A DNA stretch of 38,698 nt from Fidelibacterota bacterium UBA7300. Lineage in GTDB: Bacteria > Fidelibacterota > Marinisomatia > Marinisomatales > UBA2128. The translations under genes and the position numbers were made by a program. This document shows positions 7,539-33,070 of this stretch, in pieces. The notes below the pieces were generated by a model. The model saw only the letters and a program-made list of their open reading frames with translations. It was not told where the DNA came from and ran no database searches. The stretch lies in NCBI GenBank assembly GCA_002471865.1, contig DKQU01000009.1, positions 1,993 to 40,690 of the forward strand. Reading direction: 5' to 3'. The stretch's first letter is position 1. Each line of letters opens with the position of its first letter.

Positions 7539-7547
7539 TAATGCAAA

Positions 7548-14628: not shown

Positions 14629-14632
14629 AAGA

Positions 14633-16756: not shown

Positions 16757-16767
16757 GGAATCAGTCC

Positions 16768-17949
16768 CTATTCAGCACTGTATTCCAAAAGTTCTCTGTC
16801 TAGCTGGAGGAAAAACTTTCCATCCTTGATCGGTAGAATATTCACAACTTTGTGGTAATCCCGGCTCACGGAAATCTCAGAGTGGCCCAACGTCTGCTGA
16901 TCAACGGTCATGATTCCAATGCTCCCCAATTCGTTTTTTCCTTCACTGTAGCGGCTGTTTCCGGCGTACAGGAGATGGACAGAAGAGCCTGCAGTAAAGA
17001 GTTCCAGCGGGATGAGCCTAGAGGGGAACTGAATCTCTGCCAAAGGTCTGTCGCTATTTGGTTTAAGGACAATCAGTCGCCTACTGTCTGCTGCGAACAA
17101 TGTTTCATCCGCCCAAATCATTTTCCTGGGAAGAATTTTGTAGTTGAAAGATGTTAAATCTTCCAGAGACAGTAGTATGAGTCTGTGCTGCTGATTGTAT
17201 TCCTGCCCAGATACAACTGTCCCGGAAATAGCGGCGTAGCCATTGGTGGAAAGAGAAATATTCCGCAGGACAGTAAGCGGCAATTCCTTTATTTCAAAGG
17301 GGGAATCGTTCAGATTCCAAGAGAACAGTGCAACATTATCTGTTTGATCCAGAGCTGCAGATTTCATTCCTGCTATATAAACGTGGCTCGGCGAATGGTG
17401 TGCAATAGCTATAACCTTTTCATGATCTCTATCATCATTGGAGAAGAGTGAATGAAATTCAGAAAGGGTGCCATCTTCATTCAGCAAGCGCACTTCTTGA
17501 CTCTGAGGATCGGTGATCACAATACGATTCCCGCCATTAATTGGGGCAAGGGAAGGAAAGGCATGATCCCAAGGGACATCTATTTCCCCGGAAAAAATCT
17601 CCTCATCCTCACTGGACATGACTGATATGGCCATAGTTCTGGAAGAGAACTGAACCGGATGTTCGATGGTGACGACTACGAATTGCTGAGTTCTATTTGA
17701 AGTGGTGGATATAACCTTCAGTACTTGTTCATTTTTATACTTCGTGATTGTTGGCCCAAGAGAGAGTTCATCTTCTATCCAGTAGCCGACGACTTCTCCA
17801 GCATGTGAAGTCAGAAGCTGAGCCCTCTCCGGAACGTCAAGAATGGTACGATTCTGAAGAGAGACCTGCCCAGAAAGTGATGAGATCGCAAATAGTGTAG
17901 CAAAAACAAGCGATAGATACCAAGTGTGTGTGTGGGTTTTGTACATCAC
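16768..17949 (-). CDS. Hypothetical secreted (periplasmic?) protein with no recognisable domain and no T9SS CTD
   Basis: 393-aa ORF with a signal-peptide-like N-terminus (WYLSLVFATLFAISSLSGQ). It is packed between the GHL10-like and M23 genes, with a 1-nt gap on one side and an 11-nt gap on the other. The only coding evidence is ORF length and operon context. Confidence 0.55.
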   Translation of the reverse strand: MMYKTHTHTWYLSLVFATLFAISSLSGQVSLQNRTILDVPERAQLLTSHAGEVVGYWIEDELSLGPTITKYKNEQVLKVISTTSNRTQQFVVVTIEHPVQFSSRTMAISVMSSEDEEIFSGEIDVPWDHAFPSLAPINGGNRIVITDPQSQEVRLLNEDGTLSEFHSLFSNDDRDHEKVIAIAHHSPSHVYIAGMKSAALDQTDNVALFSWNLNDSPFEIKELPLTVLRNISLSTNGYAAISGTVVSGQEYNQQHRLILLSLEDLTSFNYKILPRKMIWADETLFAADSRRLIVLKPNSDRPLAEIQFPSRLIPLELFTAGSSVHLLYAGNSRYSEGKNELGSIGIMTVDQQTLGHSEISVSRDYHKVVNILPIKDGKFFLQLDRELLEYSAE

Positions 17950-17950
17950 T

Positions 17951-20001: not shown

Positions 20002-21762
20002 TTACTTAAGCAACATCATCTGTTTGGACTTTTCAAAGTTTCCAAACTTCAGCGCATAGATATACATGCCGCTTGTAACATTCATCCCGTTTGCATCTTT
20101 GCCATTCCACAAGACAGAGTAGTTGCCTGCACGTTGATATTCCCTGTCAACAAGCTTCACAATTTCCTGCCCCAACATATTGTAAATAGTCAGAGAAATC
20201 GTATTCTGAAGAGGAAGACTGTACTCAATCCTTGTCGTGGCGTTGAATGGATTCGGGAAGTTCTGTGCCAGTTTGTAATCTTCCGGCATAATGAACGTTA
20301 TATCTCGAACGGTAACGGATCCATCATATTCAGCTAGACGAAAGACACGGTTCCCAGCTGGATCGAGTTCACCGCTTTCAAGAGTATCATTGACAGCTTG
20401 GTAAGGCAATAGAACTCCGAAATCTGCATCTCCCGGAAACCACGCTTTAGCTTTGAAACCCCAACCGGAAGTTGCATCGTCAAGAGCATAAGAGCTATGA
20501 GTCCAACTTGAAGAATCCAGTGGGTTTCCTCCAGCGGCAAGTTCAAACAAGTTAATGTCGCTCACTCCGGCTGTTCCACCATGAATAACTCCACCCATGC
20601 CCGAATTTGTAAAGCCCGCGCCGGTTGAAGTACCAAATCCGCCGCCGCCACCAAATTCGTGAATAATAGCAATCTCACTATTGCCGGTCCAATCACCAGG
20701 GCCGCCCGTTGTGTCAAGATTCGTGGCATCACCATCAGAGTCGGTGATCACAAACAAGCTTCCATCATAGTAACCGGTAACATAGACTTCGTCTTTTCCG
20801 TCGCCGTCATTATCTGCAGCAGAAGCGCCCAGAGTCCAGTCATCGGAAATCCCGAGTTTACGGTATGTTGTGTCGCCAATGGTGTAAGCATCAGGACCGG
20901 TTGCTTCAATAAAGAACATTGCCAGATTATTCCACGAGAAACAGGCTGCTTCCAAATTACCATCACCATCTGTGTCACAGATAATAATTTCCTGAGGGCT
21001 TCCACCACCCAGGGCATTTTCTCTAACGCCGTCTTTATCGACATCCCGGGGTGCCATGGAATATTCTTCCACAATGGTGGCACCAAAACCGCCAATTTCG
21101 CCGTCTACGGACAAAATGATGAACCGATCTTCAGAGTAGGGAGTTGAACCATCCTGAGTCCCATAATACGGATCCGATCCCCCATTATTTGCAAGAAGAA
21201 TCTCATCCTGTCCGTCACCATCAATGTCTCCAACGGAGAATCCTTCAACACGGGATTCACCAAGTGAATCATTCAATGCACTAAAAAAGTCAACCCGAAA
21301 AGCGGCTTCTGTACCGTACCCGTTATCTGTACCGTCCCATTCGTAAACATGCAGCCCTGCATCAGGATTAGACTCTCCTGTCCAGCGTCCAACGTGAAAG
21401 ATGATTTCACCGTTCCCATCGCCATCCAGGTCTCCGGTATGCACATCGCGGGGTGTAGAATAATCTGCGGTTATTTCGGCAGATGCCCACACGAAGGCTA
21501 ACGTATCCGTTCCGGCTTCTTCAAAGCAGAATACTTGGCCACCGTTTGAATAACTGGACACCCAAACTTCGTTGAGGCCGTCGCCATCTAGATCGGTACC
21601 TGCCAGAGATCCACGAGAAACACCAGAGGGATCTCCGCCAAACAGACTGTCACCCGTCTCAGTTATGAACGAGGGAGCAACACCAGATTGTACGAAATCT
21701 CCAGCGAAAACAAAAGATACCGTGCAAGTAATAATAAAAAGACCAGTAACTATTTTTCTCAT
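20002..21762 (-). CDS. FG-GAP/VCBS-repeat (integrin-alpha-like beta-propeller) protein with a T9SS C-terminal sorting domain
   Basis: Signal peptide. Repeated Ca-binding-type motifs are present: TDLDGDGLNEVWV, GDLDGDGNGEIIF, GDIDGDGQDEILL, CDTDGDGNLEAAC and ADNDGDGKDEVYV. The CTD reads QNFPNPFNATTRIEYSLP...SGMYIYAL...KQMMLLK. Confidence 0.8.
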   Translation of the reverse strand: MRKIVTGLFIITCTVSFVFAGDFVQSGVAPSFITETGDSLFGGDPSGVSRGSLAGTDLDGDGLNEVWVSSYSNGGQVFCFEEAGTDTLAFVWASAEITADYSTPRDVHTGDLDGDGNGEIIFHVGRWTGESNPDAGLHVYEWDGTDNGYGTEAAFRVDFFSALNDSLGESRVEGFSVGDIDGDGQDEILLANNGGSDPYYGTQDGSTPYSEDRFIILSVDGEIGGFGATIVEEYSMAPRDVDKDGVRENALGGGSPQEIIICDTDGDGNLEAACFSWNNLAMFFIEATGPDAYTIGDTTYRKLGISDDWTLGASAADNDGDGKDEVYVTGYYDGSLFVITDSDGDATNLDTTGGPGDWTGNSEIAIIHEFGGGGGFGTSTGAGFTNSGMGGVIHGGTAGVSDINLFELAAGGNPLDSSSWTHSSYALDDATSGWGFKAKAWFPGDADFGVLLPYQAVNDTLESGELDPAGNRVFRLAEYDGSVTVRDITFIMPEDYKLAQNFPNPFNATTRIEYSLPLQNTISLTIYNMLGQEIVKLVDREYQRAGNYSVLWNGKDANGMNVTSGMYIYALKFGNFEKSKQMMLLK

Positions 21763-21906: not shown

Positions 21907-24606
21907 ATGAAGGACGAAAAATTGGAAAGGAATTGTTTTGTGAATCTGAACCGTCAGTTTCTTATCCTTCTTTTATTAACATCTAATCTTTTTGCTGCAA
22001 GCGGCAAAGTTTCTGGTAGAATTATTAGTGCAGAAACGGGTGAACCTCTTCCTGGAGTTAATGTTATTATTGAAGAAGTATCACTAGGAGCTGCGACTGA
22101 TTTGAATGGTGAATATGTCATTTTAAATATACCCTCGGGGAGTTATACGCTTCATGTATCTTATATTGGATTTGCTAAGCATACGATTAAGGGTTTAAGC
22201 GTCTATACGGATCGGACAACTCGGCAAGATTTTTCCTTAAAACAGGAAGATATTGAGGGAGAAGAGGTTATAGTGGTAGCAGAAAGACCATTGATCCAGA
22301 AGGATCTAACAGCATCTCAAAAAACTCGAACAGCTGAGGATATTAAAGATATGCCGGTTGAAACCTTCTTGGGTGTTTTAACTACACAAGCAGGAGTAAA
22401 CCAGGGTGCAGGTGGAGAGCTTCATATAAGAGGCGGTCGATACAATGAAGTTGGGTATTACATAGATGGAATATCAGTAACTAATCCTTTTTTCACAAAT
22501 TCCCTTGCCACCAATGTAGCCAATAAAGCTATTGAGGAGATGAGAGTTGTAAGTGGTGCCTTTAATGCGGAATATGGGAATGCCATGAGTGGAATTGTTA
22601 ATCTTGAGATCAAAGAGGGAGGTCCAACATACGAAGGCAGTTTTTCCATGTATACCGGTGATTATCTCTCTAGTGATACCAAGATTTTTATGAATATTGA
22701 CGAGGTAAATTATTTATCCAATCAAGTTATTGAAGGAACGCTTAATGGTCCGGTACCTCTGCTTTCTACCGGGGGGAAATTCACTTTTAACGTAAGTGGA
22801 CGATACAGTAATAGTGACGGATATTTATATGGGAAACGGGAGCATCTGCCGGATGATTATGCAGATTTCAGGGTATCTGATTATTGGTATATTGAATTAG
22901 GTGGTGATAATAAATATGTACCTATGAATCCGTCAAACAGTTTGAATATGCTTACTAAACTAACTCTTAGAATTACCCCTAAGTTGAAAGTGTCGACACA
23001 GATGCTTCACGATCAACGCAATTGGAAATCATATAACCATGCGTACAAATACAATCCTGATGGCACTTACAATCACTTTACTGCAAATGACAATTTTTCT
23101 CTAAAGTTATCCCAAGTCTTCACAAAAACATTTTATGAAGCAAACGTGTTTTATTCTACTACGGATTTTAGCCAATATGTTTATGAAGACCCATTTGATG
23201 AAAGATATGTTTCTACAAATACTATTCAGGGAGCTCCTCCGACTACGACCTTCGTTTTCGGAGGTACACAGATGGGTCATTATTACCGGGAGTCTATATC
23301 CAAAGGAGGTAAATTTGACCTGACCAGCCAGATTACCAGTAAACATGAGATAAAAATAGGTGTTAGTGGTAGACTGGATGATCTTGAAGAAAACAATTTC
23401 ACCGTTCTCTATGATGGTTATGATTACCCAGTACCCACGGTTCTTCCTGCGAATGATTCCCCGAGCCATAACTATTATAACAAAAATGCATTTTTTGCCT
23501 CTTCCTACATTCAGGATAAAATTGAATACACTAACATGGTTGTAAATGCGGGTATCCGGTACGATTATTTTGATCCTAATGATAATTACATTGTGGATCA
23601 GTTAAATCCCGAGGGAGAAAGAGAGGAAGCCAAACCCAAATCAATGATCTCACCACGACTAGGTGTTTCATTTCCCATCACGGATCGCGGAGTTCTTCAC
23701 TTTTCCTATGGACATTTTTATCAAATGCCAACGCTGAGACGACTTTACAAAACCAGCATTTTTGGTGCTAATCTGTCACCGACGATCGGTTACAGTAATT
23801 TAAAGCCGGAAAAGACAGTAATGTATGAGTTTGGACTTCAGCAACAACTGTCTCACATTATAGCAGTTGATGTGAGCGCTTACTACAAGGACATTCGGGA
23901 TTTGCTTGCCGTTCAGTCCATAGATTATCAATCCCCAACTTACGGACCTGCTTCCTATAGCATTTATCTGAACAAAGATTATGCAACGGTGAAGGGTTTT
24001 GCTATCAGCTTAACAAAACGGTACGATCGTTTCTCTAAGACGTCTGCTTTTATTGATTATGCTTATCAGATGACCGATGGAAATGATGTTAACTCTGGAT
24101 CCTTCTACTTCAACGCATTGACAGGGGAAGAAGAGGAGAAAAGAATTGTTCCCCTTAATTGGGATCAATGGCATGTTTTTAACGCTACTATCACTATCAG
24201 TGATCCAAATAACTGGGGCATCAGTGTAATCGGTAAACTTTCAAGCGGTTGGCCTTATACGCCAGATATCCCCAATGCTAATTATGTCCCTGAATCTAAT
24301 AGCGCTCGAAAACCTTGGCAGAAAAGTGTAAATGTCAGAGTGTATAAAACCGTGAATGTGGGGAAAATGAATGTGGTTATATTTACCAAAATTTTTAATC
24401 TTTTTGATACGAGAAATGAAAGATACGTTTATGATGATACTGGTAGATCTGGTTATACTTTTATAAATCGAACCAATCAGGAAACAGAAGCATTTATAGA
24501 ACATTATGGCGAGCCCGGTGTTCATACCTGGGAAGAATATCAAGTTAGACCTCATTACTATAGTACTCCCCGATCAGTACAGATGGGGCTTTCACTGGAT
24601 TTTTAA
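21907..24606 (+). CDS. TonB-dependent outer-membrane receptor with an N-terminal carboxypeptidase-regulatory-like domain
   Basis: GKVSGRIISAETGEPLPGVNVIIEE..GAATDLNGEYVILNIPSGSYTLHVSYIGF is the CarbopepD_reg-like domain. The plug-like region reads EEVIVVAERP...DIKDMPVETFLGVLTTQAGV...LHIRGGR. A ~650-aa barrel follows, ending ..QMGLSLDF with a terminal Phe. The true start may be GTG 21940 (VNLNRQFLILLLLTSNLFAASG), which is preceded by GGAAAGGA. Confidence 0.85.
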   Translation: MKDEKLERNCFVNLNRQFLILLLLTSNLFAASGKVSGRIISAETGEPLPGVNVIIEEVSLGAATDLNGEYVILNIPSGSYTLHVSYIGFAKHTIKGLSVYTDRTTRQDFSLKQEDIEGEEVIVVAERPLIQKDLTASQKTRTAEDIKDMPVETFLGVLTTQAGVNQGAGGELHIRGGRYNEVGYYIDGISVTNPFFTNSLATNVANKAIEEMRVVSGAFNAEYGNAMSGIVNLEIKEGGPTYEGSFSMYTGDYLSSDTKIFMNIDEVNYLSNQVIEGTLNGPVPLLSTGGKFTFNVSGRYSNSDGYLYGKREHLPDDYADFRVSDYWYIELGGDNKYVPMNPSNSLNMLTKLTLRITPKLKVSTQMLHDQRNWKSYNHAYKYNPDGTYNHFTANDNFSLKLSQVFTKTFYEANVFYSTTDFSQYVYEDPFDERYVSTNTIQGAPPTTTFVFGGTQMGHYYRESISKGGKFDLTSQITSKHEIKIGVSGRLDDLEENNFTVLYDGYDYPVPTVLPANDSPSHNYYNKNAFFASSYIQDKIEYTNMVVNAGIRYDYFDPNDNYIVDQLNPEGEREEAKPKSMISPRLGVSFPITDRGVLHFSYGHFYQMPTLRRLYKTSIFGANLSPTIGYSNLKPEKTVMYEFGLQQQLSHIIAVDVSAYYKDIRDLLAVQSIDYQSPTYGPASYSIYLNKDYATVKGFAISLTKRYDRFSKTSAFIDYAYQMTDGNDVNSGSFYFNALTGEEEEKRIVPLNWDQWHVFNATITISDPNNWGISVIGKLSSGWPYTPDIPNANYVPESNSARKPWQKSVNVRVYKTVNVGKMNVVIFTKIFNLFDTRNERYVYDDTGRSGYTFINRTNQETEAFIEHYGEPGVHTWEEYQVRPHYYSTPRSVQMGLSLDF

Positions 24607-24629
24607 TGTTAATCAGGAGTTGTTTGTAA

Positions 24630-27600
24630 ATGAAGCTTAAAATAGAAATTTCAAGAACTTCTATTTTTCTTCTTTTGATAAGTTTATTAATAATTATTCC
24701 TTTCAATACGCTCTCCAGTCAATGGAAGTTCTTTGGAAAGAAAGATAATACAGCCATGCACGAACTTGTGCCAGAAAAGGATTGGCCTGAGTGGAAATAC
24801 CGCGACTACTACGACTGGCGTAACACGGCATTGATGAGACAGTTGGATGATGAAGATGACCCGCAGATACTTAGACGGCAAAAAGCTATTCTTGTAGGTA
24901 ATAAGATTTCCGCTGAAATCTGGAATTTTGGATCTATTTCCAGCCCAGGAAATCATACTTCCGATATTGTATGGGAAGGACTCGGATATGGATATGAATT
25001 TGGTCCGTTTATTTGCGCAGAAGTTGAAGTGACTCCATCCAGCCATCAGGATGCTTACATCAAGACCGATGAACTTGGAAATCCGGTTATCAACGAGGAG
25101 GGCGACACTGTCTGGGTAGCGAGAGTCATTAGTGATGGTTTGGTTTCTCTGGGAGGTGAAGTATCACCTGATGGTCAAGAATTCTGGGGATGGCAGCCTC
25201 TTGCATATAACAATGAGCTTGTTCCTTATGCGGATCCTAACAGCAATTATATCCCCACATCAAATGATGTGGACCGCGATGGTGATGGTAAACCAGACAG
25301 CTGGCCTGAAGGGTGGTACAATGAGAATCTAAAGGAATTTGTTTGGCCCGGGGCTCTAAAACAAGGTGCATCTAATTCTGATATGGAAAGCTTCTTTGTG
25401 GTGGACGACCGAACTAACAAGGAATTTGAATATTATCCAATCAGCAACGATTCTACCCGTAAAGGACTTGGAATTGAAATTGAATGTCGGTATTACCAGT
25501 GGTCCAACCCTTTAGCTGAAGATATTATTTTTCTTATTTACAAAGTTACTAATGTCAGTGACAAAGATCTTGAGGAAGTCATATTTGGAATGTGGGGTGA
25601 TCCCCATGTTGGCGGATGGGCAAACTGGCAGGATGACCTCTCCTTTTTTGATCAAGATATAAATATGGTGTACTGCTGGGATGAAGATGGAGTCAGTGAT
25701 GTGTCTGGACGTCCCCCGGGGTATTTTGGCTATAAATTTCTGGAGAGTCCAGGGAACCCATATGATGGTATAGATAACGACGATGATAATATGATAGACG
25801 AAAGCCGGAGTGACGGAATCGATAACGATTTAGATTGGGATGTTGAAAAACATGATGTTGGAGTTGACGGTCTTCCTAATACTGGCGACGAAGGTGAAGG
25901 AGATGGTGAGCCAACCGCAGGAGATCCTTTTGATATCCGCGAACCTGGAGAACCTAATTACGAATGGACTGACTTGGACGAGGCGGATATGGTGGGGTTA
26001 ACAGGATTTTCCTCACCTGTGTTCGGAGGAAATAACACCATATCAGAAGATCATCACGTATTCGAAGATTTTTTGACTCCGGGAGTATTTGATTCTGCAA
26101 ATGCTAATACGGCCGGAGATTATATTTTCATCTACAGCTCAGGACCGATTGATCTACCTGCTGGAGAAGCTCGGCGGTTTTCAGTCGCATTGTTGGTAGG
26201 ACAAAATTATCAAGATCTTACATTGAATGCTGTGACAGCTCAAAGCATATATGAGCGGAATTATCAATTTGCAAAACCTCCTGAAAAACCTAAGGTCACA
26301 GCTGTTCCAGGTGATGAGAAGGTGACCTTCTACTGGGATGACGTGGCGGAATCTTCTGTGGATCCAATTTCAGAAACAGAAGATTTTGAGGGGTATGTTA
26401 TCTATCGCAGCACCGATCCGCAGTTCTTGGATCAGCAAACAATCACAGACGCTTACGGTTCGAATTTTCTGTTTACTCCACTAGAAATGGTGGGAGGAGC
26501 CCCTGCCCGATTTGACCTTGATAATGAATATAGCGGTTTAAGTGATATTCTTTATACCGGGCATGGTATTCCCTATAACCTTGGCAACAATACTGGAATC
26601 CTGCACTCTTTTGTGGACTCTAACAATGTGATTAACGGTCAAACATATTACTATGCCGTTGTCTCTTATGATCATGGAGATGATAGCTTGGAGATAGCTC
26701 CCGCAGAATGTTCCAAACTGATTACACTAAATCCTGAATCGAACGAAATTTTCCTCGATGTGAATACAGTACAGATCATTCCTCGCTCTCCCGCTGCAGG
26801 ATATGTGGAAGGACAAGTAATAGATGATGATATTTTACACCTATCGGGAATTGCTACAGGGAACCTGAGAGTTGAGATTATCGATCCTATGAAAATAGAA
26901 GATCAGGATACATTTAAAGTAACTTTTCAGGAGTCGCCAACTCGGTTTTCCATTGAGGACCTGAAACTCATAGATGATCAGTTTATCGCCAATGTAGATA
27001 AATTTATCTCTCTTTCTCATAAGAATATCAATGATAGTACTTTTTATCTTACAGATACGGCAGAAGTAAATATCTATAACAGAGATGTAGATTATGAACT
27101 TGATGCAGAATTCGGTCGTATAAAAGCCCTCGCTACTGGAGATTTGGAGGATGGAATCCTCTATTTTGCCAAGTATACCTACTTACCGATTTTTGAGAGC
27201 CAGTTGATAGATAATGAAGAAGCGAATCCTGTATTTGATGGGATGAAGATCTTTGTTGAAGACCAACCCTTGGAGATTGACATTTCAAAGACGGGATGGA
27301 ATGCATTAAGTCCGACAAATTATACTGCAGTTGTCGGAGTGTATTCACAAGGTGGGAACTCTTATCCGGCAGATTATGAAGTTCGTTTTGCATCATCAAT
27401 TGTTGACACAGGATCTTATTCAGGCATTTTTACTCCATTCAATATATATAAAACCACTATGGGCATGGTTCCCGAAAAGCAGAGGTTTGCAATTATCAAA
27501 AAACCGCCCGATGTAAGCAATGATACCTGGGACACGCACGATGAAATCGTGTTGTTTGAGGGAGAGGGATTTGGATCGCCAACTTGGATGATTAAATTCT

Positions 27601-28061
27601 TTGAACCAAGTGAGGGAACACCTGTTCTTCCGACGGAAGATGACATTTTCTATGTCTTTACTTCCCGCCCATTCTATGAAGATGATGTATATACTTTTGC
27701 TACACAGGCATCTTATATAGACAATCAGCTCGGGGAAGCAAGTTTAGATCAAATATCGGTAGTTCCAAATCCCTACGTAGTAACTAATGTTTTGGAACAA
27801 CTAGATCGCCAAAATCCGAGAGACCGTGGTCCTCGACGGGTATATTTCAACCATTTACCTACAGAGTGTACGATTCGTATATATACAATGTCAGGTGAAT
27901 TAGTAAAAACCCTGTATCATCAATCTGATCTTGATGATGGTAAGGAATTTTGGGATCTGACGACGAAAGATAATTTCCCAATTGCTTATGGTGTTTATAT
28001 CTTTCACGTGGATGCCGGAGAATTGGGGCAAAAGATTGGTCGTCTTGGTGTCATTAAATAA
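24630..28061 (+). CDS. Giant (1143 aa) secreted/surface protein of unknown function. It has an Asp-rich Ca-binding-type repeat region, an Fn3-like segment and a variant T9SS-like C-terminal domain. Paralog of 2..1732.
   Basis: Hydrophobic N-terminal signal/anchor (SIFLLLISLLIIIPF). The Asp-rich region, at about nt 25764..25934, reads YDGIDNDDDNMIDESRSDGIDNDLDWDVEKHDVGVDGLPNTGDEGEGDGEPTAGDPFD. The Fn3-like stretch reads PEKPKVTAVPGDEKVTFYWDD...FEGYVIYRS. The C-terminus reads ISVVPNPYVVTNVLEQLDRQNPRDRGPRRVYFNHLPTECTIRIYTMSGELV...GVYIFHV...GRLGVIK. AGGAG lies 13 nt upstream, and the gene starts 23 nt after the receptor stop. Confidence 0.8.
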   Translation: MKLKIEISRTSIFLLLISLLIIIPFNTLSSQWKFFGKKDNTAMHELVPEKDWPEWKYRDYYDWRNTALMRQLDDEDDPQILRRQKAILVGNKISAEIWNFGSISSPGNHTSDIVWEGLGYGYEFGPFICAEVEVTPSSHQDAYIKTDELGNPVINEEGDTVWVARVISDGLVSLGGEVSPDGQEFWGWQPLAYNNELVPYADPNSNYIPTSNDVDRDGDGKPDSWPEGWYNENLKEFVWPGALKQGASNSDMESFFVVDDRTNKEFEYYPISNDSTRKGLGIEIECRYYQWSNPLAEDIIFLIYKVTNVSDKDLEEVIFGMWGDPHVGGWANWQDDLSFFDQDINMVYCWDEDGVSDVSGRPPGYFGYKFLESPGNPYDGIDNDDDNMIDESRSDGIDNDLDWDVEKHDVGVDGLPNTGDEGEGDGEPTAGDPFDIREPGEPNYEWTDLDEADMVGLTGFSSPVFGGNNTISEDHHVFEDFLTPGVFDSANANTAGDYIFIYSSGPIDLPAGEARRFSVALLVGQNYQDLTLNAVTAQSIYERNYQFAKPPEKPKVTAVPGDEKVTFYWDDVAESSVDPISETEDFEGYVIYRSTDPQFLDQQTITDAYGSNFLFTPLEMVGGAPARFDLDNEYSGLSDILYTGHGIPYNLGNNTGILHSFVDSNNVINGQTYYYAVVSYDHGDDSLEIAPAECSKLITLNPESNEIFLDVNTVQIIPRSPAAGYVEGQVIDDDILHLSGIATGNLRVEIIDPMKIEDQDTFKVTFQESPTRFSIEDLKLIDDQFIANVDKFISLSHKNINDSTFYLTDTAEVNIYNRDVDYELDAEFGRIKALATGDLEDGILYFAKYTYLPIFESQLIDNEEANPVFDGMKIFVEDQPLEIDISKTGWNALSPTNYTAVVGVYSQGGNSYPADYEVRFASSIVDTGSYSGIFTPFNIYKTTMGMVPEKQRFAIIKKPPDVSNDTWDTHDEIVLFEGEGFGSPTWMIKFFEPSEGTPVLPTEDDIFYVFTSRPFYEDDVYTFATQASYIDNQLGEASLDQISVVPNPYVVTNVLEQLDRQNPRDRGPRRVYFNHLPTECTIRIYTMSGELVKTLYHQSDLDDGKEFWDLTTKDNFPIAYGVYIFHVDAGELGQKIGRLGVIK

Positions 28062-28080
28062 TGAAAAAGTAAAAAAAAAG

Positions 28081-29115
28081 ATGAAGTCAACTATCAAGAT
28101 TCAACTCTTATGCCTACTTGTCTTTGGGAACTTTGGTTGGTCCCAATTGGATAACGTGCAGACGATCACCAAAACAGGGACCACTGCAGCACAATTCTTG
28201 AAGATTGGTGTAGATCCAAGAGGATCATCTATGGGGAATGCTTTTACAGCGATGCCAGGAGATGTCAGTTCTATGTTCTGGAATCCTGCTGGGTTAACCG
28301 CTGTAAAAAGGATCGAATCCATGTTTGTTGAAAGTGATTGGCTGGCAGGAGTGAGTTATAATTATTTGGCTCTTGCACTACCGATTCGTAGTATAGGTGT
28401 GCTAGGGATGAGCATCACAAACTTATCTGTTCCTGAAGAGATCGTTCGTACGGTAACTGACCCGGAGGGCACTGGAGAATATTGGGATGCACAAGATCTG
28501 GCAATCAATCTTGCTTTTGCTAGAACTTTAACTGACAGGTTTTCTATAGGTGCAAATATTAAATATATTCAACAGAATATTTGGCATGCCACCGCCGATG
28601 CATTTGCTGTGGATATAGGTGCTCTGTTCATCACACCGTGGGGAGTCCGATTGGGGGCAAGCCTTGCCAATTATGGTAATTATATGAGACTGTCTGGACG
28701 GGATCAAAAATTAAGTGTTGATCCTGATCCTCAGAACCAAGGAAACGTTGAATTTGTAAATGCCATGTATGAGACAGATTATTTTCCTCTTCCACTCATG
28801 TTTCGTGTAGGATTATCAGGAGAGATTATAAAAACCAATGCATTGCGGCTTAGTTTTGGTGTGGATGCACTGCATCCAAACGATAACAGTGAAGCGGTTA
28901 ACGCTGGGTTTGAAATGGCAATGGGTGAGACTATTTTCCTCCGGGGTGGACATGCAAACCTGTTCAGAGAAGGTGCCGAAGAGGGATTTACACTTGGTGG
29001 AGGGATTCATTATAGGTTAAAGAGTAGTCCTACAATTATTAAGATAGATTATTCCTATTCTGATTTTAGCAGGTTAGAAGGAGTCCAACGAATATCCATG
29101 GGGATTAAATTTTAG
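28081..29115 (+). CDS. PorV/PorQ-family (LptO-like) T9SS-associated outer-membrane beta-barrel, copy B
   Basis: MKSTIKIQLLCLLVFGNFGWSQ is the signal peptide. GTTAAQFLKIGVDPRGSSMGNAFTAMPGDVSSMFWNPAGLTA follows. The protein is collinear with 1750..2802 over its full length (..ALHPNDNSEAVNAG..FLRGG...IDYSY..) and ends ..MGIKF. The track ORF start at 27982 lies inside the upstream gene, so ATG 28081 is preferred. Confidence 0.7.
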   Translation: MKSTIKIQLLCLLVFGNFGWSQLDNVQTITKTGTTAAQFLKIGVDPRGSSMGNAFTAMPGDVSSMFWNPAGLTAVKRIESMFVESDWLAGVSYNYLALALPIRSIGVLGMSITNLSVPEEIVRTVTDPEGTGEYWDAQDLAINLAFARTLTDRFSIGANIKYIQQNIWHATADAFAVDIGALFITPWGVRLGASLANYGNYMRLSGRDQKLSVDPDPQNQGNVEFVNAMYETDYFPLPLMFRVGLSGEIIKTNALRLSFGVDALHPNDNSEAVNAGFEMAMGETIFLRGGHANLFREGAEEGFTLGGGIHYRLKSSPTIIKIDYSYSDFSRLEGVQRISMGIKF

Positions 29116-29215: not shown

Positions 29216-30517
29216 ATGAATAAAAAACTAAGTGTCATCTTTGTTTATCTAATTATTGTTATCTTTCCTCAATCTGGATTTTGTTTCTCTGATATCGCTC
29301 AGAAAATATCAAGTCAGATAGTCTCCCGCGTATTAAGGTCAGGACAAGTTGTACAGCTCATCGGTGTTACCGAGGATTATACTAATATGGGTAATATTGA
29401 AGGAGTAGCTATCCACATTTATTCGGAAAATATTCCAGATGTTTCTCTCCGTTTTCAATATGATAATGGTAACTGGTCGGAGTGGCAAAACGCCCAACTG
29501 TTTACTGAGCCGTTTTCGTACCGTTCCATTGCCTGGTTCAGGGGTGAACTGGCCAAATCATCCATGCGATATGAATATAACACTTCCGTTCAGCAGGGTA
29601 GCATAGAGATACTAAGTGTTGGCCTGTTTCTTGAAGATAATGAAGAATATCCCATTGTATCTGAAATCCCCAAAGTAACACCACATGATTTGCAAAAACC
29701 CCGTATTATTACCAGAGAAGAGTGGGGAGCTCAACCCCCAACACATGGTTATACAAATCACCCATACTTTACAAAGTTAACTCTTCACCATGCGGCGGGA
29801 TTTTCCGCCTCGAATATTGAAGAAGGGAAAATTCAGATGAGGGCTATTCAAGACTTTCATCAGATTGTCCGTGGATGGAGTGATATTGGTTATCACTTTG
29901 TTGTTGATCGAGCAGGTAACATTTATCAAGGGAGACCTGAGACAGTAATTGGTGCTCATGTGCTTAGCCATAACACGGGCAATATTGGTGTATGTGTTCT
30001 AGGGTGTTATCATCCACCGGAATTGTATTGTAATGATCAACTTACTCAAGCTTCAAGAGATTCGCTGGTCAAACTTTACGCGTGGATTTCTGAAACATAT
30101 GACTATAATCCTTATGTTCTTCTCGGTCATAGAGATTATCCAGACAATGATACTTCATGCCCTGGTAACAATGTCTGGTCTCTTTTATATTCAATAAGAG
30201 ATGCAATAAATATTTATATAGAAATGGGAGGGCCTCCACTTTACTATACATTATCACAGAATTATCCTAACCCATTTAATCTGCAAACAACAATTCTCTT
30301 CGATTTACCAAAAGAAAGTATGGTTCATTTGACTATATTTAACATCCAGGGTAGAGTAGTAAAAAAAGTTGTAGACCAGATTATGAATAAGGGAATACAG
30401 ACAGTTATGTGGGATGGAAGAAATATTGAAGATACCCAAGTAAGTGCAGGAGTTTATCTATACCAAATAGAGGCTGGAGATTTTGTGCAGACCAAGAAGA
30501 TGGTGCTCCTAAAGTAA
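29216..30517 (+). CDS. N-acetylmuramoyl-L-alanine amidase (Amidase_2/PGRP-type) with a T9SS C-terminal sorting domain
   Basis: ITREEWGAQPP...LTLHHAAG...IQDFHQIVRGWSDIGYHFVVDRAGNIYQGRP...GAHVLSHNTGNIGVCVLG...SCPG is the amidase_2 (T7-lysozyme/PGRP) pattern. The CTD reads QNYPNPFNLQTTILFDLP...AGVYLYQI...KKMVLLK. Confidence 0.8.
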   Translation: MNKKLSVIFVYLIIVIFPQSGFCFSDIAQKISSQIVSRVLRSGQVVQLIGVTEDYTNMGNIEGVAIHIYSENIPDVSLRFQYDNGNWSEWQNAQLFTEPFSYRSIAWFRGELAKSSMRYEYNTSVQQGSIEILSVGLFLEDNEEYPIVSEIPKVTPHDLQKPRIITREEWGAQPPTHGYTNHPYFTKLTLHHAAGFSASNIEEGKIQMRAIQDFHQIVRGWSDIGYHFVVDRAGNIYQGRPETVIGAHVLSHNTGNIGVCVLGCYHPPELYCNDQLTQASRDSLVKLYAWISETYDYNPYVLLGHRDYPDNDTSCPGNNVWSLLYSIRDAINIYIEMGGPPLYYTLSQNYPNPFNLQTTILFDLPKESMVHLTIFNIQGRVVKKVVDQIMNKGIQTVMWDGRNIEDTQVSAGVYLYQIEAGDFVQTKKMVLLK

Positions 30518-30607: not shown

Positions 30608-33070
30608 CTATTTCAGTAGAGTAAACTTTCGGGCGTAGCTCTGACCACCTGATTTAAGCAGTACGGTGTAAGTTCCCGATGCTGCCATTTCTCCGGCAAA
30701 CGTCTTTCCATTCCATTTTACAGTGAGTTCGCCCCCGGTGGTCGGCAAAGCGGTTAGAGGAATTTCAGCCACTGACCGTCCAAGAATATCAAGGATCTTG
30801 ATAATAGATGTTTCTGCCTGAAATCCCTGAGAGATCTGGATCAATATATTGACTTGGAGATTTGCAGGATTGGGGTAAATGGCAGTGATGCTCGGAGTTT
30901 GTGGCAACGGTGTTGGATCAGTCACTAATTGGAGGTTCGTGTAGAAGTAGTTCAGCATTTCGGACATGATAGCGTTCCTGCTCTCCTCCGGGTAGATGGT
31001 CTCGAAAGGGATGGCAAGATGTACCACTCCTCCCTGAGAAGAACTTCCCCCGAAATTTCCGATGTACTCTATTCCTGCTCCTCCCTTTGTGGAATAATCC
31101 ACATTGTTGTATTTAAGATTTATGGCAGATCCAGCGGTAGGTTTGATCCCATCCGGCCAGTCCACATCATAAGTGCCATGACTTCCGTTGTCAAAGGTAA
31201 CGCTGGAAAAGTCGGAGAAGATTCCTCCGTCAGTGCCGAATGCTTCATAAGTTCCCTGTTGGCCGCCTGCCGCGTCAGAGACAAAAACTGACTTCAGATA
31301 ATCGGTGTAGAAAGCATAATCAGCAGCATCTCCCTCAGCCACCAGATCGTAACCGATTTCTGAACCTGAAACAAATAGTCCCCGCCCTGCCTCGAGGAAG
31401 TCCATCACCTCTGCTTGTTCAGCCGCTGTAAAGGAGCTGGTAGCTGTTCCTTCTTCGCCCAGAATCCAGTCAACAATGAAGTAATCGTTCAAATTGATAC
31501 TGCCTGATTCCACAACTTCGTTAGCGCAGGCGTCGAAGGCAACCCCGGCGGCTTGAATGGCAGGACCGTGGCGGCGAATGAAATCAAATGTGTTGGTGGT
31601 GCCGTTAACACGGTCGAAGCCGTTTACCACCAGGATAGGAACTTCCTCAGAAGTTGGTATTACACCCAGCACTTCTGTCATAGGGCTTTCGCCATACTCG
31701 TTCTCTGCTGATATTTGGAAGTAGTACAGTTCGTCTTCTGTTAGATTGGTCAAGACTACAGGTTCACTTGAAAAGGTTGCGAGCAACTCTGAACTGCCTG
31801 CTAACCAGCTGTAGATGTTAAACTCACTGGCGCCGCTTGGCGTAGAGAAGTTGATTTGCACCGAGCCGTCGCCTATATTGATGATACTCAGATTGGTGGG
31901 AGTTGTGGGCGGAGCAGAAGCGCCAAAGTGATCAGCCAGCGCTCCCCATAACTCCGGTTCAGTTCCGTCATAGCCGAGTGCCCAAATACCGATACCCAGC
32001 AAGTCTTCGTCGATGGCCAACTCGTATTTAAGGGAAAGTGAGAGGCTGTCATCATACCACCCTTGGTGCCAGTTACTGCTGCCATCTTGGTAGTGGTACC
32101 ACGGTGTCTGGGATTCATCGTTCCACAAGGGGCCGTAACTCTCCGCCAGAGCGATGGCTTCGGAGTAGAATTTGGCATCGCCGCTCCCGGTAGTGGATGC
32201 TCCGGCGCTGCCGGAAGTAGTTGGCCATTCGTATCCGTAGTACGGCAAGCCGAGGATGATCTTATCCCGGTCGTTTCCGGTCTCGTTCAAGTAGTCGTTC
32301 ACGGTCCAAGTGACGTTGTAGGTACCCCAGCCGGATAGGGGAGAGACAGGTCCTGCCGTGGGACTGCCGCTCCAGTGATAGGCGTAACCCATGATCATCA
32401 AGCCGTCGCAAGTTTCAGCGAGAGCGTCGTAATCAAAGGCGTTAGACCAATCCACAGCCGGAGTAGCCATAGTCACCTGTGATGCCGGATTCGCTTCGTG
32501 AAAAGCTGCAGTTAGATCCGTCATGAATGTGGTAAGGTTGTTACGTTGGCTGGAGGGGACACCTTCAAAATCTATATTCACCCCGTCAGCTCCAGCATCG
32601 TTTACCTCTGTCAGGAGATTATTGATGAGTGTCTGCCGGTTGGAAGGGCTGCTCAAAAGCTGGGCTAAGTTATCGCTGTTGAATAGGATGACTCCCAATG
32701 AGACTTCTGTTCCGTACGAGTGAGCTTCGTTGATGAGGCTCGTCACCGGCCAGCCGTGATGATCAACTATATTACCGCTGCCGTTGATCTCCAAACCGAA
32801 ATAGGCGATGGTGGAAATGAGATTGAAGTTGTAGCTCTGCCACGCCGTCCCCATCCAGTAGGGGTGGTAACCGAATACCTCCCTGGAGGGTATTGTCCGT
32901 CGTGCCTGTATTGGGATAGAAGCACCATAGGATTCGGTTTTGATGTCACGATATAGCTCTCGGAAGATTTCGTGTTGTTCTTGGTGGATACTTTTGTGAT
33001 ACTGTCCGGTAGCGACGTTTGTCAGCATTAAAACAAAGGCCAAAAAGAGTAATGCCTGCAGTAGCTTCAT
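30608..33070 (-). CDS. GH18 glycoside hydrolase (SleL/YaaH-like, chitinase-like) + Fn3-like + uncharacterised ~230-aa module + T9SS C-terminal sorting domain
   Basis: VFGYHPYW...LSTIAYFGL...ADGVNIDFEG is the GH18 DxxDxDxE region with Asn at the second Asp position, as I recall for Bacillus YaaH/YdhD-type enzymes. ...LMIMGYAYH...LGLPYYGY...IGIWALGYD follows. The Fn3-like region reads PTNLSIINIGDGSVQINF. The shared module reads VPILVVNGFDR...LFVSGSEIGYDL. The CTD variant reads AIYPNPANLQVNILIQ...GTYTVLL...RKFTLLK. Confidence 0.8.
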   Translation of the reverse strand: MKLLQALLFLAFVLMLTNVATGQYHKSIHQEQHEIFRELYRDIKTESYGASIPIQARRTIPSREVFGYHPYWMGTAWQSYNFNLISTIAYFGLEINGSGNIVDHHGWPVTSLINEAHSYGTEVSLGVILFNSDNLAQLLSSPSNRQTLINNLLTEVNDAGADGVNIDFEGVPSSQRNNLTTFMTDLTAAFHEANPASQVTMATPAVDWSNAFDYDALAETCDGLMIMGYAYHWSGSPTAGPVSPLSGWGTYNVTWTVNDYLNETGNDRDKIILGLPYYGYEWPTTSGSAGASTTGSGDAKFYSEAIALAESYGPLWNDESQTPWYHYQDGSSNWHQGWYDDSLSLSLKYELAIDEDLLGIGIWALGYDGTEPELWGALADHFGASAPPTTPTNLSIINIGDGSVQINFSTPSGASEFNIYSWLAGSSELLATFSSEPVVLTNLTEDELYYFQISAENEYGESPMTEVLGVIPTSEEVPILVVNGFDRVNGTTNTFDFIRRHGPAIQAAGVAFDACANEVVESGSINLNDYFIVDWILGEEGTATSSFTAAEQAEVMDFLEAGRGLFVSGSEIGYDLVAEGDAADYAFYTDYLKSVFVSDAAGGQQGTYEAFGTDGGIFSDFSSVTFDNGSHGTYDVDWPDGIKPTAGSAINLKYNNVDYSTKGGAGIEYIGNFGGSSSQGGVVHLAIPFETIYPEESRNAIMSEMLNYFYTNLQLVTDPTPLPQTPSITAIYPNPANLQVNILIQISQGFQAETSIIKILDILGRSVAEIPLTALPTTGGELTVKWNGKTFAGEMAASGTYTVLLKSGGQSYARKFTLLK

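Follow-up and report, generated by a model that had tools for sequence, protein, structure and literature searches.

Can a TonB-dependent receptor without a SusD-like partner form a surface capture system with other proteins? The question is raised by three co-directional genes in a 38,698-nt stretch of DNA from the Marinimicrobia (SAR406) member Fidelibacterota bacterium UBA7300 (hereafter, the window), in which a TonB-dependent receptor (21907-24606) is followed by a protein of 1,143 residues, here called the giant (24630-28061), and by a PorV/PorQ-family barrel (28081-29115). Receptor and giant are separated by 23 nt (24607-24629), with AGGAG upstream of the giant's ATG, and giant and barrel by 19 nt (28062-28080); an ORF check returned exactly the coordinates and gaps of the original prediction, which had read the triad as a SusD-independent system whose giant is held at the surface by a private barrel. 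No published description of such a triad was found in the literature, in keeping with the earlier statement that none was known. Overall, that interpretation is partly supported.

The receptor (899 aa, forward strand) was assigned from Pfam and NCBIfam matches and from reading of the sequence. It comprises a signal peptide, a CarboxypepD_reg-like N-terminal domain, a TonB-box-like EEVIVVAERP, a plug and a barrel ending in ...LSLDF. Matches to CarbopepD_reg_2 (75 bits), CarboxypepD_reg and Plug confirm the predicted receptor type, NCBIfam adds partial matches to TonB-receptor barrels, PF00593 is found in orthologues, and public records name the protein 'TonB-dependent receptor'. Membership of the SusC/RagA family was rejected, as TIGR04056 reached 81 bits against a cut-off of 368 and matched the N-terminal part only. 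The predicted absence of a SusD-like gene also held, with no match to a SusD-type family in any sizeable ORF of the window. SusCD pairs have been reported in some of the phyla that carry the triad (PMC5753385), so a missing SusD does not by itself account for the triad.

The third gene encodes a dedicated barrel of 344 aa (forward strand), whose ATG at 28081 is backed by orthologue alignments beginning at residue 1. This barrel and a second one in the window (350 aa, 1750-2802, forward strand) score 191 and 206 bits with the PorV/PorQ-family model NF033709 (cut-off 90), whereas PorP/SprF, OmpA and porin models gave no match to either at E<=0.01, and a proposed comparison of PorV/PorQ with PorP/SprF is thus decided for the former. 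The only FadL-type matches fell far below their cut-offs, Toluene_X on the second barrel (17.8 bits against 29.7, E 0.0012) and pilus_FilD on the first (23.7 against 970). The nearest solved structure to the first barrel is PorV (6h3i_F, E 3.8e-6). Its assignment as an orthologue of PorV, PorQ or PorV2 was rejected (score/cut-off: NF033710, 64/250; NF033711, 70/220; NF052325, 83/325).

The giant (1,143 aa, forward strand) is a 'hypothetical protein' in every public record seen and matched no Pfam family and no NCBIfam family above cut-off, as anticipated from its lack of any recognisable family. Sequence searches returned at least 2,835 homologues, and the family comprises 6,278 clusters at 50% identity. 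The protein has no lipobox. It is presumably secreted, and an AF2 model (pLDDT 84, pTM 0.77) shows an all-beta protein built of a supersandwich, Ca-repeat-like loops, Fn3/Ig-like domains and a C-terminal domain (CTD), with no catalytic domain seen. Residues ~80-545 (24867-26264), the most conserved part as judged from invariant columns, are modelled as a large beta-supersandwich that Foldseek matches, with probability 1.0, to the beta-sandwich that GH94, GH116, GH149 and dextran dextrinase carry as a non-catalytic domain at their N terminus; the (alpha/alpha)6 catalytic domain is absent from the model in this search. The supersandwich is interrupted at residues ~375-460 (25752-26009) by Asp-rich loops that read as Ca-repeat-like DxDxDG-type repeats, and many acidic residues are invariant in alignments of the giants. 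An Fn3-like domain with a long insert (residues ~550-720, 26277-26789), assigned from AF2 secondary structure and Fn3 fold hits, falls within profile positions ~380-765, the region that the most distant family members match in a representative search. Residues ~725-1039 (26802-27746) are modelled as beta-sandwich domains with pLDDT about 90; they share little similarity with the paralogous giant described below and are a candidate ligand-specific part.

The CTD of the giant (residues ~1040-1143, 27747-28058) is best described as a divergent type-A-like type IX secretion system (T9SS) CTD. It lies below the curated thresholds of TIGR04183 and PF18962, so T9SS export is predicted from its profile-profile match to the ordinary type-A CTDs of the window (hhalign probability 91.7%, E 7.7e-7) and from the many T9SS substrates encoded nearby. 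A CTD HMM scores the giants at 57-158 bits and ordinary CTDs at 16-33 bits. A conserved insert of ~20 residues (1048-1065, 27771-27824) is disordered in the monomer model, with pLDDT <50 in both predictions, and E1056 is invariant in the giant alignment. Judged from these profiles, the giant CTD is homologous to type-A CTDs yet stands apart from them as a class of its own, whose occurrence follows that of the barrel: in the loci examined, it adjoins a PorV/PorQ-family gene almost without exception.

The second cassette, on the forward strand at the start of the window, carries the C-terminal 576 residues of a paralogous giant (2-1732), recognized by alignment to the first giant and by the CTD HMM (123 bits), together with the second barrel. 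Contigs that carry the identical barrel gene supply the full-length giant, of 1141-1155 aa, and upstream of it the receptor that had been predicted to lie outside the window (923 aa, CarboxypepD_reg/Plug, 33% identical to the first). Within the window, the alignment of the two giants is confined to the last ~186 aa, at 33% identity; the full-length protein aligns with the first giant from residue 177 to the end, at 29% identity. The two barrels are 36% identical over their full length. The genes at 2-2802 are therefore true paralogues, as claimed, and these identities indicate that receptor, giant and barrel were duplicated together. A recurrent fourth gene follows the barrel and encodes a PPIase-like lipoprotein (…LFAC; 2811-4310, forward strand) with weak SurA-N/PPIC-rotamase similarity (Rotamase_2 E 0.017); homologues at L079:12452-13864 (Rotamase_2 1e-5, SurA_N_3 5e-5) and L130:17270-18799 (Rotamase_2 43 bits, SurA_N_3 34.5 bits) match the same families. 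Co-directional glycan hydrolases, identified with Pfam as GH16/T9SS, GH16/T9SS, GH16 and GH5+CBM6/35/T9SS, come next (4288-10741, forward strand), and in this operon on L089-L092 the genes upstream encode an SSF symporter, a CBM9/T9SS protein and the receptor. The whole is a beta-glucan/laminarin operon.

The neighbourhood census that had been proposed covered about 170 loci from Marinimicrobia, KSB1, Calditrichia, Ignavibacteria and Gemmatimonadota, and the triad was intact wherever the contig extends, bar three exceptions. In the genome set, 84 of 90 giants have a receptor upstream and 87 a barrel downstream, every miss being a contig end or an ORF-calling artefact; the 80 genome loci, from Marinimicrobia, KSB1, Calditrichia, Fidelibacterota and others, have both partners where the contig extends. 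The metagenome set comprised 80 more divergent loci, with giants 23-76% identical to that of the second cassette; a neighbouring barrel was found in 59/63 and a neighbouring receptor in 43/46. Frameshifted giants account for two of the three receptor misses; of the four barrel misses, two trace to L115, a single permuted cassette that retains a barrel. The exceptions are L094 and L157, without an adjacent barrel, and L110, without both partners; gene order is permuted in L102, L103 and L115. Seen from the barrels, 87 of 89 in the genome set lie beside special-CTD proteins, the other two being at contig starts, as do all those of the metagenome set except in L115. The receptor directly adjoins the giant in almost every locus, often with overlap or gaps of a few nucleotides, and the median giant-to-barrel gap is -4 nt, stop and start overlapping. 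The three-gene linkage is real and far above chance.

The triads fall into two classes: a highly conserved core beside an FG-GAP/T9SS gene, to which the triad at 21907-29115 belongs, and paralogues in PUL-like operons. The core triad of the window is flanked by an FG-GAP/VCBS-repeat protein with an ordinary type-A T9SS CTD (20002-21762, reverse strand; FG-GAP_3, FG-GAP, Por_Secre_tail; TIGR04183 35 bits) and by a secreted N-acetylmuramoyl-L-alanine amidase (Amidase_2) with a type-A T9SS CTD (29216-30517, forward strand; Pfam, NCBIfam). An FG-GAP homologue ends <1.5 kb upstream of the receptor in 39 of 54 eligible genome loci and is also found in Ignavibacterium, KSB1 and other contexts. The Amidase_2/T9SS homologue, present at 26 of 80 genome loci and also in L081-L083, often lies beside the core triad in Marinimicrobia; the other conserved neighbours are housekeeping genes. 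The claim that both cassettes lie inside glycan-hydrolase loci thus holds for the second only and is not confirmed for the first. Between MAGs that are assigned to different phyla, core-type giants keep ~60% identity over 1140 aa, a strange degree of conservation for a surface protein that binds a ligand and perhaps a sign of a housekeeping role.

The paralogous triads keep company with LacI, a CBM9/T9SS protein, GH16/GH9/GH3 and ABC or SSF transporters. Gene orders include SSF, CBM9/T9SS, receptor, giant, barrel, PPIase-like, three GH16 and GH5; LacI, CBM4_9/T9SS, triad, ABC transporter, PPIase-like and GH; CBM9/T9SS, triad, GH9/T9SS and two GH3; CBM9/T9SS, triad, GH16 and GH3; and, in Gemmatimonadota, LacI, triad, T9SS proteins, GDE_C and SSF. 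In many cassettes, a separate CBM9- or CBM4_9-bearing T9SS protein lies just upstream and could be the real glycan binder instead of the giant. SusD-independent capture finds its support in the paralogous triads of sugar operons, not in a conserved glycan locus around the first copy.

We consider it somewhat more likely than not that the T9SS exports the giant, that an uncleaved CTD keeps it on its cognate barrel, and that it partners the receptor in capture or as a lid. What the analysis shows is the order of the genes, their close or overlapping spacing, their families and joint duplication, the operon contexts, an all-beta non-enzymatic fold and the CTD relationship; T9SS export, CTD retention, barrel binding, receptor contact and ligand binding are inferred. 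The three proteins would form a single outer-membrane machine that uses TonB energy to import a macromolecular nutrient, with receptor and small barrel inserted into the outer membrane and the giant crossing it through the T9SS by its divergent type-A-like CTD. Instead of being cleaved and linked to LPS, this CTD would stay on the cognate PorV/PorQ-family barrel, as PorZ does on PorQ and PorU on PorV, so that the giant would be tethered non-covalently at the cell surface. The conserved N-terminal supersandwich/Fn3 module may associate with the receptor, and the variable beta-sandwich region may bind the substrate, presumably a glycan in the paralogous cassettes, and hand it over to the receptor, comparable to SusD-type and other lipoprotein lids in Bacteroidota.

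Several known systems resemble parts of this machine. As in SusC/SusD and RagA/RagB of Bacteroidota PULs, a CarboxypepD_reg-like receptor is followed by the gene for a non-enzymatic surface protein, and SusC/SusD, like the paralogous triads, share their operons with a LacI-type regulator, with glycoside hydrolases that are secreted or lie at the surface, with CBM proteins and with sugar transporters of the inner membrane. The triad differs in that its receptor fails the SusC/RagA model, its partner is an all-beta protein of ~1,100 residues with a T9SS-type CTD rather than the ~550-residue alpha-helical TPR lipoprotein SusD, and a PorV/PorQ-family barrel is an obligatory third gene, with no SusD family present. 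The lid concept is shared with BtuG, XusB, HmuY, DUF4249, DUF4625 and DUF4876 of Bacteroides, non-SusD surface proteins beside non-SusC receptors that are predicted to bind the receptor's outer face and aid capture (Price et al., 10.1101/2023.03.17.533168). Those lids are small lipoproteins delivered by lipoprotein export, whereas the giant, about ten times the size of some of them, is predicted to travel through the T9SS and to rely on a separate barrel for its attachment.

For the anchor, PorZ and PorU of the P. gingivalis attachment complex keep their CTDs and bind PorQ and PorV, 14-strand barrels of the PorV/PorQ family, and cognate PorV-like barrels have been proposed to shield CTDs from cleavage (PMC10202324). 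The triad barrels share an NCBIfam family with PorQ and PorV but fail their equivalog models, the giant lacks the PorU peptidase signature and the PorZ architecture, and a genome has several giant-barrel pairs, every one of them linked to a TonB-dependent receptor and many to sugar operons. The order of giant and barrel mirrors that of the adjacent genes porU and porV. In SprB-SprF and PG1035-PorP-PorE, which use type-B CTDs, the cargo gene also adjoins that of a FadL-family barrel, one-to-one and with many paralogous pairs per genome, and the PorP/SprF-like barrel is credited with two tasks, collecting its own cargo and anchoring it (PMC9143113). The triad differs from these by its type-A-like CTD (no TIGR04131/CHU_C match above threshold), a barrel of the PorV/PorQ rather than the PorP/SprF family with no PorE-like partner seen, and a TonB-dependent receptor as constant third member. 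The likeness to BamG-BamH of the Bacteroidota BAM, in which a large extracellular protein is bound through the extracellular loops of a FadL-type barrel in a multi-barrel machine (PMC12578637), is architectural only, as that machine is centred on BamA and made of other families. The predicted one-to-one pairing of cargo and anchor gains support from the hhalign match of the divergent CTD, from CTD-barrel adjacency and from co-duplication.

A less likely reading, though one to be taken seriously, makes giant and barrel a T9SS cargo/anchor pair merely co-expressed with the receptor, forming no stable lid-like complex, with the giant serving as a surface glycan-binding protein, scaffold or novel enzyme upstream of uptake. 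Supersandwiches of the galactose-mutarotase/GH-accessory type seen among the fold hits can bind or even process sugars, the invariant acidic residues of the giant are numerous, and in Bacteroidota PULs, too, genes for binding proteins and enzymes of the cell surface lie next to SusCD. Against this stand the co-duplication of the receptor with the pair, its immediate adjacency in almost every locus, the absence of a recognizable catalytic domain, and the sharing of the giant's N-terminal module by paralogues of differing operon contexts, as substrate-independent docking predicts.

It is improbable that the barrel is instead a private shuttle, taking the giant to the SprA/Sov translocon in the manner of SprF-SprB, after which the giant is released or otherwise attached, a reading that would exclude our own only in part. 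A CTD this divergent might do no more than require an adaptor to itself, and according to one proposal PorV and PorP-like barrels dock on the translocon, where each picks up its own class of cargo (PMC9143113); yet the barrels of SprF-SprB, PorP-PG1035, PorQ-PorZ and PorV-PorU also remain bound as anchors (PMC9143113, PMC10202324), and one barrel gene strictly per giant, with translational coupling, suits a stable partner.

Still less probable is that the core triad is a housekeeping envelope machine, such as an equivalent of the T9SS attachment complex peculiar to this lineage, or another device of surface assembly, from which only the paralogues were recruited to sugar operons. The high conservation of one cassette type across MAGs placed in different phyla, its flanks of housekeeping genes and T9SS substrates (FG-GAP, amidase) rather than transporters, and Reg_prop propellers with a CTD, like PorZ, among distant family members would fit. 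So would weak fold hits to PorZ and PorU, but these are of low confidence and low TM (PorZ, probability 0.66, TM ~0.1; PorU, probability 0.35), similarity to the PorZ and PorU models is confined to the C-terminal ~70 residues, and the giant reaches the cut-off of neither NCBIfam model. No Cys is invariant outside the CTD, so the giant is not a PorU-type Cys/His peptidase. To our knowledge, plug-containing TonB-dependent receptors are importers in all well-studied cases, and the paralogues clearly sit in uptake operons. It is very improbable that the barrel merely serves as a FadL-type channel through which some hydrophobic compound passes and that its place beside the giant has no cargo/anchor meaning: PorV/PorQ proteins are FadL-family barrels and Toluene_X weakly matches the second barrel below cut-off, but the NF033709 match is strong and family-specific, barrels adjoin special-CTD proteins throughout both sets bar the cases given, and the barrel gene overlaps the giant's stop codon in most loci.

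The three outcomes that the original prediction had named as counting against it were all looked for, and none was found: the barrels score with the PorV/PorQ family rather than as generic outer-membrane proteins, synteny with receptor and PorV-like genes is near-universal, and Pfam, NCBIfam, profile and fold searches place the giant in no known enzyme family. Taken together, a TonB-dependent receptor, a secreted all-beta giant of ~1,100 residues and a PorV/PorQ-type barrel probably represent an undescribed way to build a nutrient-capture machine, one that is kept in ocean SAR406 bacteria and related phyla and occupies the place of SusC/SusD in sugar-utilization operons.

The three open reading frames of the flagged cassette were confirmed on the (+) strand at 21907–24606 (receptor), 24630–28061 (the 1143-aa giant protein) and 28081–29115 (barrel). 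Between the end of the receptor TAA at 24606 and the giant's ATG at 24630, which AGGAG precedes, is a gap of 23 nt; the giant's TAA ends at 28061, 19 nt before the barrel ATG at 28081. As the original prediction proposed, the first gene encodes a TonB-dependent receptor of the CarbopepD_reg type, with Pfam matches to CarbopepD_reg_2, CarboxypepD_reg and Plug (PF07715, 44 bits) and partial NCBIfam matches to TonB-receptor barrels (residues 349–759 to TIGR01786 and other receptor barrel models); PF00593 is present on its orthologs. With a TonB-box-like EEVIVVAERP and a terminal ...LSLDF read from the sequence, the protein classes as a general TonB-dependent receptor, a group defined by a plug followed by a 22-strand barrel, a TonB box and a C-terminal aromatic residue. 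Against the SusC/RagA model TIGR04056 it scores 81 bits, over residues 34–224 only, versus a cut-off of 368. A Pfam scan of the window's ORFs found no SusD families, and no SusD-like gene follows the receptor: the next gene, that of the giant, has no Pfam family, is modelled as all-beta and carries a signal peptide without a Cys. The giant is neither a lipobox protein nor a member of the alpha-helical, TPR-like SusD family, and so is not a SusD/RagB lid lipoprotein.

The second cassette, at the start of the window, comprises the C-terminal part of a giant (2–1732) and a barrel (1750–2802). Inside the window, alignment of the two giants is confined to their last 186 residues (33%) and a short IPxxPAAGY motif, and the two barrels are 36% identical. 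Looking up the exact second barrel on public contigs recovered the genes beyond the window edge: an SSF symporter, a 1184-aa CBM9/T9SS (type IX secretion system) protein, a 923-aa CarboxypepD_reg/Plug receptor and a giant of 1141–1155 aa lie upstream, and a 499-aa lipoprotein, three GH16 genes and GH5+CBM6 follow downstream. The receptor predicted to lie outside the window thus exists and is 33% identical to the flagged one, and the full-length giants are 29% identical from residue 177 to the end, which bears out the proposed paralogy. Because all three genes are paralogous, the triad of receptor, giant and barrel was duplicated as a unit.

The linkage of the three genes is conserved across genomes. 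When one genome per species was scanned, 289 genomes proved to carry relatives of the giant, and 80 loci from this set entered a census of gene neighbourhoods; taxon names there are MAG record titles, several evidently mis-binned. By tblastn over these 80 loci, a receptor (47–76%) lies directly upstream and a barrel (44–71%) directly downstream, barring contig ends. ORF calling with three HMMs gave 90 giants in 89 sources, accompanied by a receptor in 84/90 and a barrel in 87/90; all those lacking either partner in this set are explained by contig ends or ORF artefacts. Conversely, a giant precedes 87 of 89 PorV-family genes, the remaining two sitting at contig starts. Giant and barrel genes are translationally coupled, with a median gap of −4 nt (ORF starts being longest-ORF calls). 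A metagenome scan seeded with the second cassette added 80 loci whose giants are 23–76% identical to its giant; here the barrel adjoins the giant in 59 of 63 eligible cases and the receptor in 43 of 46. Genuine exceptions are locus L110, which has neither partner, and L157 and L094, which have no barrel; L148 and L154 are only apparent exceptions with frameshifted giants, as are L021, L061 and others owing to ORF calling or contig ends. Gene order varies to receptor–barrel–giant in L102 and L103 and to giant–receptor–barrel in L115, where a second, normal triad follows, and L150 (510–18814) holds two tandem triads with giants of ~1600 aa.

Some loci show further peculiarities. In L094 (12444–21411; CP070762.1, a 5.2-Mb genome), the place after the giant is taken by a reverse-strand ORF without a precomputed Pfam match and then by a run of small ORFs essentially without Pfam matches; an insertion here may have displaced or replaced the barrel. 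Two KSB1 genomes carry a 125-aa gene for 23S_rRNA_IVP, a four-helix-bundle domain, between receptor and giant (L084, 9538–9915; L085, 3252–3629). Triad contigs of the Marinimicrobia type, at 57–76% identity, also occur inside MAGs labelled with unrelated taxa (L001, Winogradskyella sp.; L053, Chloroflexota; L067, a Methanobacteriota archaeon; L014, L022 and L025, uncultured Cytophagia), most likely because public MAGs were wrongly binned or labelled.

The giant had been described as belonging to no recognisable family, and this stands: Pfam gives none, the one NCBIfam match, to an Ig-like tail-tube segment, is under threshold, and its profile has zero matches at E≤1 among PDB sequences. Its top-ranked homologs in public data belong to Candidatus Marinimicrobia/Neomarinimicrobiota (SAR406; 60–99% identity), with KSB1 homologs at up to ~60%, and every name seen in the records is 'hypothetical protein'. 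The giant's profile, searched against 1.84 billion cluster representatives, picks out 6278 clusters at 50% identity with E≤1e-3, 917 of which reach E≤1e-30; the farthest relatives have profile positions ~380–765 in common, and a second search brings in Calditrichia, Ignavibacteria, Gemmatimonadota and one MAG labelled Bacteroidota. Precomputed annotation assigns PF27730.1 to P0013, an ortholog 69% identical, and a very recent Pfam release may therefore already model part of the giant. Pfam scans of distant relatives returned weak C-terminal-domain (CTD) or propeller matches only. Among such relatives, three of ~1500–1600 aa (P0144, P0150 and P0154) carry, directly before the CTD, Reg_prop-type beta-propeller repeats such as are annotated in PorZ-like proteins, and P0125 begins with a BNR/YCF48-like propeller.

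A first AF2 model of the giant, built from 32 close orthologs, had a pLDDT of 59, with the N-terminal 720 residues unusable and an uninformative fold search. Rebuilding the alignment with 60 homologs (35–77% identical) yielded a second model that is almost wholly beta (pLDDT 84, pTM 0.77). Searched against the PDB with Foldseek, as the original prediction had proposed, this model places the giant in no known enzyme family. It matches, with probability 1.0 over ~500 columns, the N-terminal non-catalytic beta-supersandwich of GH94, GH116, GH149 and dextran dextrinase, and Foldseek found no counterpart in it of the catalytic (alpha/alpha)6 domain of these enzymes. A glycoside phosphorylase or hydrolase is thereby ruled out, the accessory beta-sandwich alone matching; Fn3 arrays, S-layer proteins, PorZ and PorU match only weakly. 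Along the chain, Asp-rich DxDxDG-type loops were read in the sequence at residues ~375–460, an Fn3-like domain with an insert occupies ~550–720, confident beta-sandwiches that are unconserved between the two window copies span ~725–1039, and a beta-sandwich that ends in ...GVIK makes up the last ~105 residues.

This C-terminal domain appears to be related to, and distinct from, known T9SS signals. The flagged giant does not match the type-A CTD models TIGR04183 or PF18962, and the second giant scores 16.8 bits versus a type-A cut-off of 23. When compared profile to profile with the window's seven ordinary type-A CTDs, the giant CTD matches with a probability of 91.7% (E 7.7e-7); it thus appears to be a divergent type-A subclass with an insert of ~20 residues (1048–1065), which is conserved and disordered in both models. 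An HMM of the giant CTD scores giants at 57–158 bits and ordinary type-A CTDs at 16–33 bits; because of this separation we treat it as a distinct class, one that co-occurs with a private PorV/PorQ-family barrel. The type-B models (TIGR04131, PF13585 CHU_C) do not match the giant, CHU_C being seen only at E 0.005–0.009 in three distant relatives. The sole invariant Cys among 32 giant orthologs, C1080, lies within the CTD.

Taken together, these data slightly favour a three-component uptake machine. The giant, which has a signal peptide and no lipobox, would be exported through the T9SS; its CTD would be retained and bound by the cognate barrel, and the tethered giant would cooperate with the receptor, through a putative direct contact, as a lid or capture element. 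Docking is a candidate function of the N-terminal module conserved between paralogs, and ligand binding a candidate function of the variable sandwiches. Such a fate is documented for PorZ, held on PorQ, and PorU, held on PorV, both with the CTD retained, and type-B CTD proteins on PorP-like barrels are anchored analogously (PMC10202324, PMC9143113). The main alternative, itself unlikely, keeps the cargo/anchor pair and treats the giant as a surface binder that stands by itself, or as a novel enzyme; the receptor conserved directly upstream counts against it.

Genomic contexts fall into two classes. Both cassettes had been placed in glycan-hydrolase loci, which holds for the second copy only: contexts in other genomes rule out a conserved glycan-hydrolase locus for the flagged copy, whose class, here termed core type, spans Marinimicrobia, KSB1 and Ignavibacterium. 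An FG-GAP/T9SS protein lies directly upstream in 39 of 54 eligible core-type loci and an Amidase_2/T9SS protein close by in 26 of 80, and the other neighbours are housekeeping genes. These neighbours would suit a housekeeping role for the core triad, a lesser alternative set against the sugar-operon setting of its paralogs. In the window, cell-wall-related genes surround the core triad (13485–19786 (−), 29216–30517 (+) and 30608–33070 (−)), encoding an LD-carboxypeptidase, an M23 peptidase/T9SS protein, an unknown 393-aa protein, GHL10, a secreted Amidase_2/T9SS protein and GH18+Fn3/T9SS; the cluster hints at peptidoglycan or chitin scavenging. The GH18, GHL10, M23 and LD-carboxypeptidase genes are not conserved neighbours, and the amidase is the sole window cell-wall gene recurring beside triads elsewhere.

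In the second class, which includes the second window copy, the triad lies inside co-directional sugar operons. L130 reads LacI, CBM4_9/T9SS, triad, ABC binding protein and permease, SurA/PPIase-like protein and GDE_C/GH94-like protein; L108 reads CBM9/T9SS, triad, GH9/T9SS and two GH3 genes; L114 reads CBM9/T9SS, triad, GH16+malectin/T9SS and GH3; and a Gemmatimonadota genome has LacI, triad, T9SS proteins, GDE_C and SSF. Here the triad holds the place of SusC/SusD in the polysaccharide utilisation loci (PULs) of Bacteroidota. Almost always, the protein encoded directly upstream of the receptor is large and has an ordinary type-A T9SS CTD. In sugar-operon cassettes it bears CBM9 or CBM4_9, and in core-type loci it has FG-GAP repeats (L089, 170–3724; L091, 2–2419; L108, 4311–7115; L114, 4731–7196; L121, 3853–7242; L130, 4706–7219; window, 20002–21762 (−)); it may be a fourth, surface glycan-binding component. 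A lipoprotein of ~470–510 aa with weak SurA-N and PPIC-rotamase similarity recurs after the barrel or farther down the operon (window, 2811–4310 (+); L079, 12452–13867; L076, 12500–13900; L130, 17270–18799) and could be a dedicated periplasmic chaperone; the SprA translocon of F. johnsoniae is reported to bind a PPIase (PMC9143113). A promoter and terminator scan, ill-suited to FCB promoters, gave background levels.

Both small barrels belong to the PorV/PorQ family, as predicted, matching NF033709 over the full model at 191 bits (28081–29115) and 206 bits (1750–2802) versus a cut-off of 90; the closest solved structure by sequence is PorV 6h3i_F. Over their N-terminal halves only, they score, respectively, 64 and 80 bits for PorV proper (NF033710, cut-off 250), 70 and 82 for PorQ proper (NF033711, 220) and 83 and 58 for PorV2 (NF052325, 325). 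Neither matches PorP/SprF (TIGR03519, PF11751) at E≤0.01 in Pfam or NCBIfam. A barrel acting as a shuttle only is a lesser alternative, at odds with the pairing of each barrel with its own giant. The barrels are not generic outer-membrane proteins, OmpA and porin matches at E≤0.01 being absent. An unrelated FadL-type channel is another lesser idea; the sole FadL-type matches, Toluene_X and pilus_FilD, are far under cut-off.

The triad differs from each known system compared. Unlike SusCD, it has a receptor outside the SusC family, a giant that is not SusD and an obligatory extra barrel; unlike the alternative Bacteroides lids (10.1101/2023.03.17.533168), the giant is not a lipoprotein; and SprB–SprF differs in both CTD type and barrel family. 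With PorZ–PorQ and PorU–PorV it has the barrel family in common, although its barrels fail the ortholog models and the giant lacks the PorU catalytic Cys and the PorZ propellers. The adjacency of porU and porV suggested that the giant might be PorU or PorZ. It has no match outside the CTD to the PorU sortase model NF033707 (a C25-type Cys/His peptidase) and a fold match to 6za2 of probability 0.35; for PorZ (NF052228), the second giant scores 18 bits, in the CTD only, versus ≥260, with a fold match to 5m11 of probability 0.66 and TM ~0.1. Lacking a catalytic Cys, a model match beyond the CTD and a propeller, the giant is neither. Literature searches found no published description of the triad. 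PULDB records susCD tandems in Gemmatimonadetes and Ignavibacteriae (PMC5753385), so that in at least some phyla the triad is an additional system and not a mere substitute.

We tentatively extend the uptake reading, at somewhat lower confidence, to non-Bacteroidota FCB phyla (Marinimicrobia/SAR406, KSB1, Calditrichota, Ignavibacteriota and Gemmatimonadota): polysaccharides might be taken up there, unlike by SusCD, via a receptor working with a T9SS-delivered, beta-rich giant as capture or lid protein, held non-covalently by a PorV/PorQ-type barrel of its own, the triad being a PUL hallmark and the core type an ancient, extremely conserved form for a universal substrate. The core-type triad occurs in at least 289 species-level genomes, with very high conservation of its giant. 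SAR406 bacteria are among the most abundant in the dark ocean, and SAR406, KSB1, Calditrichota and Ignavibacteriota are thought to be polymer degraders. PUL prediction rests on the susC/susD tandem, and triad loci therefore escape current PUL tools; the triad is easy to search for and can mark glycan-uptake operons in these phyla. The giants form a large, well-conserved family with no functional annotation in the records seen and now a confident structural model, which makes the hypothesis directly testable. If it is true, PorV-family barrels can be permanent docks for transporter components, and the T9SS can stand in for surface-lipoprotein export when a transporter lid is assembled; the FCB-wide reading would define a new class of uptake complexes in the outer membrane and give PorV-family barrels a new role outside secretion.
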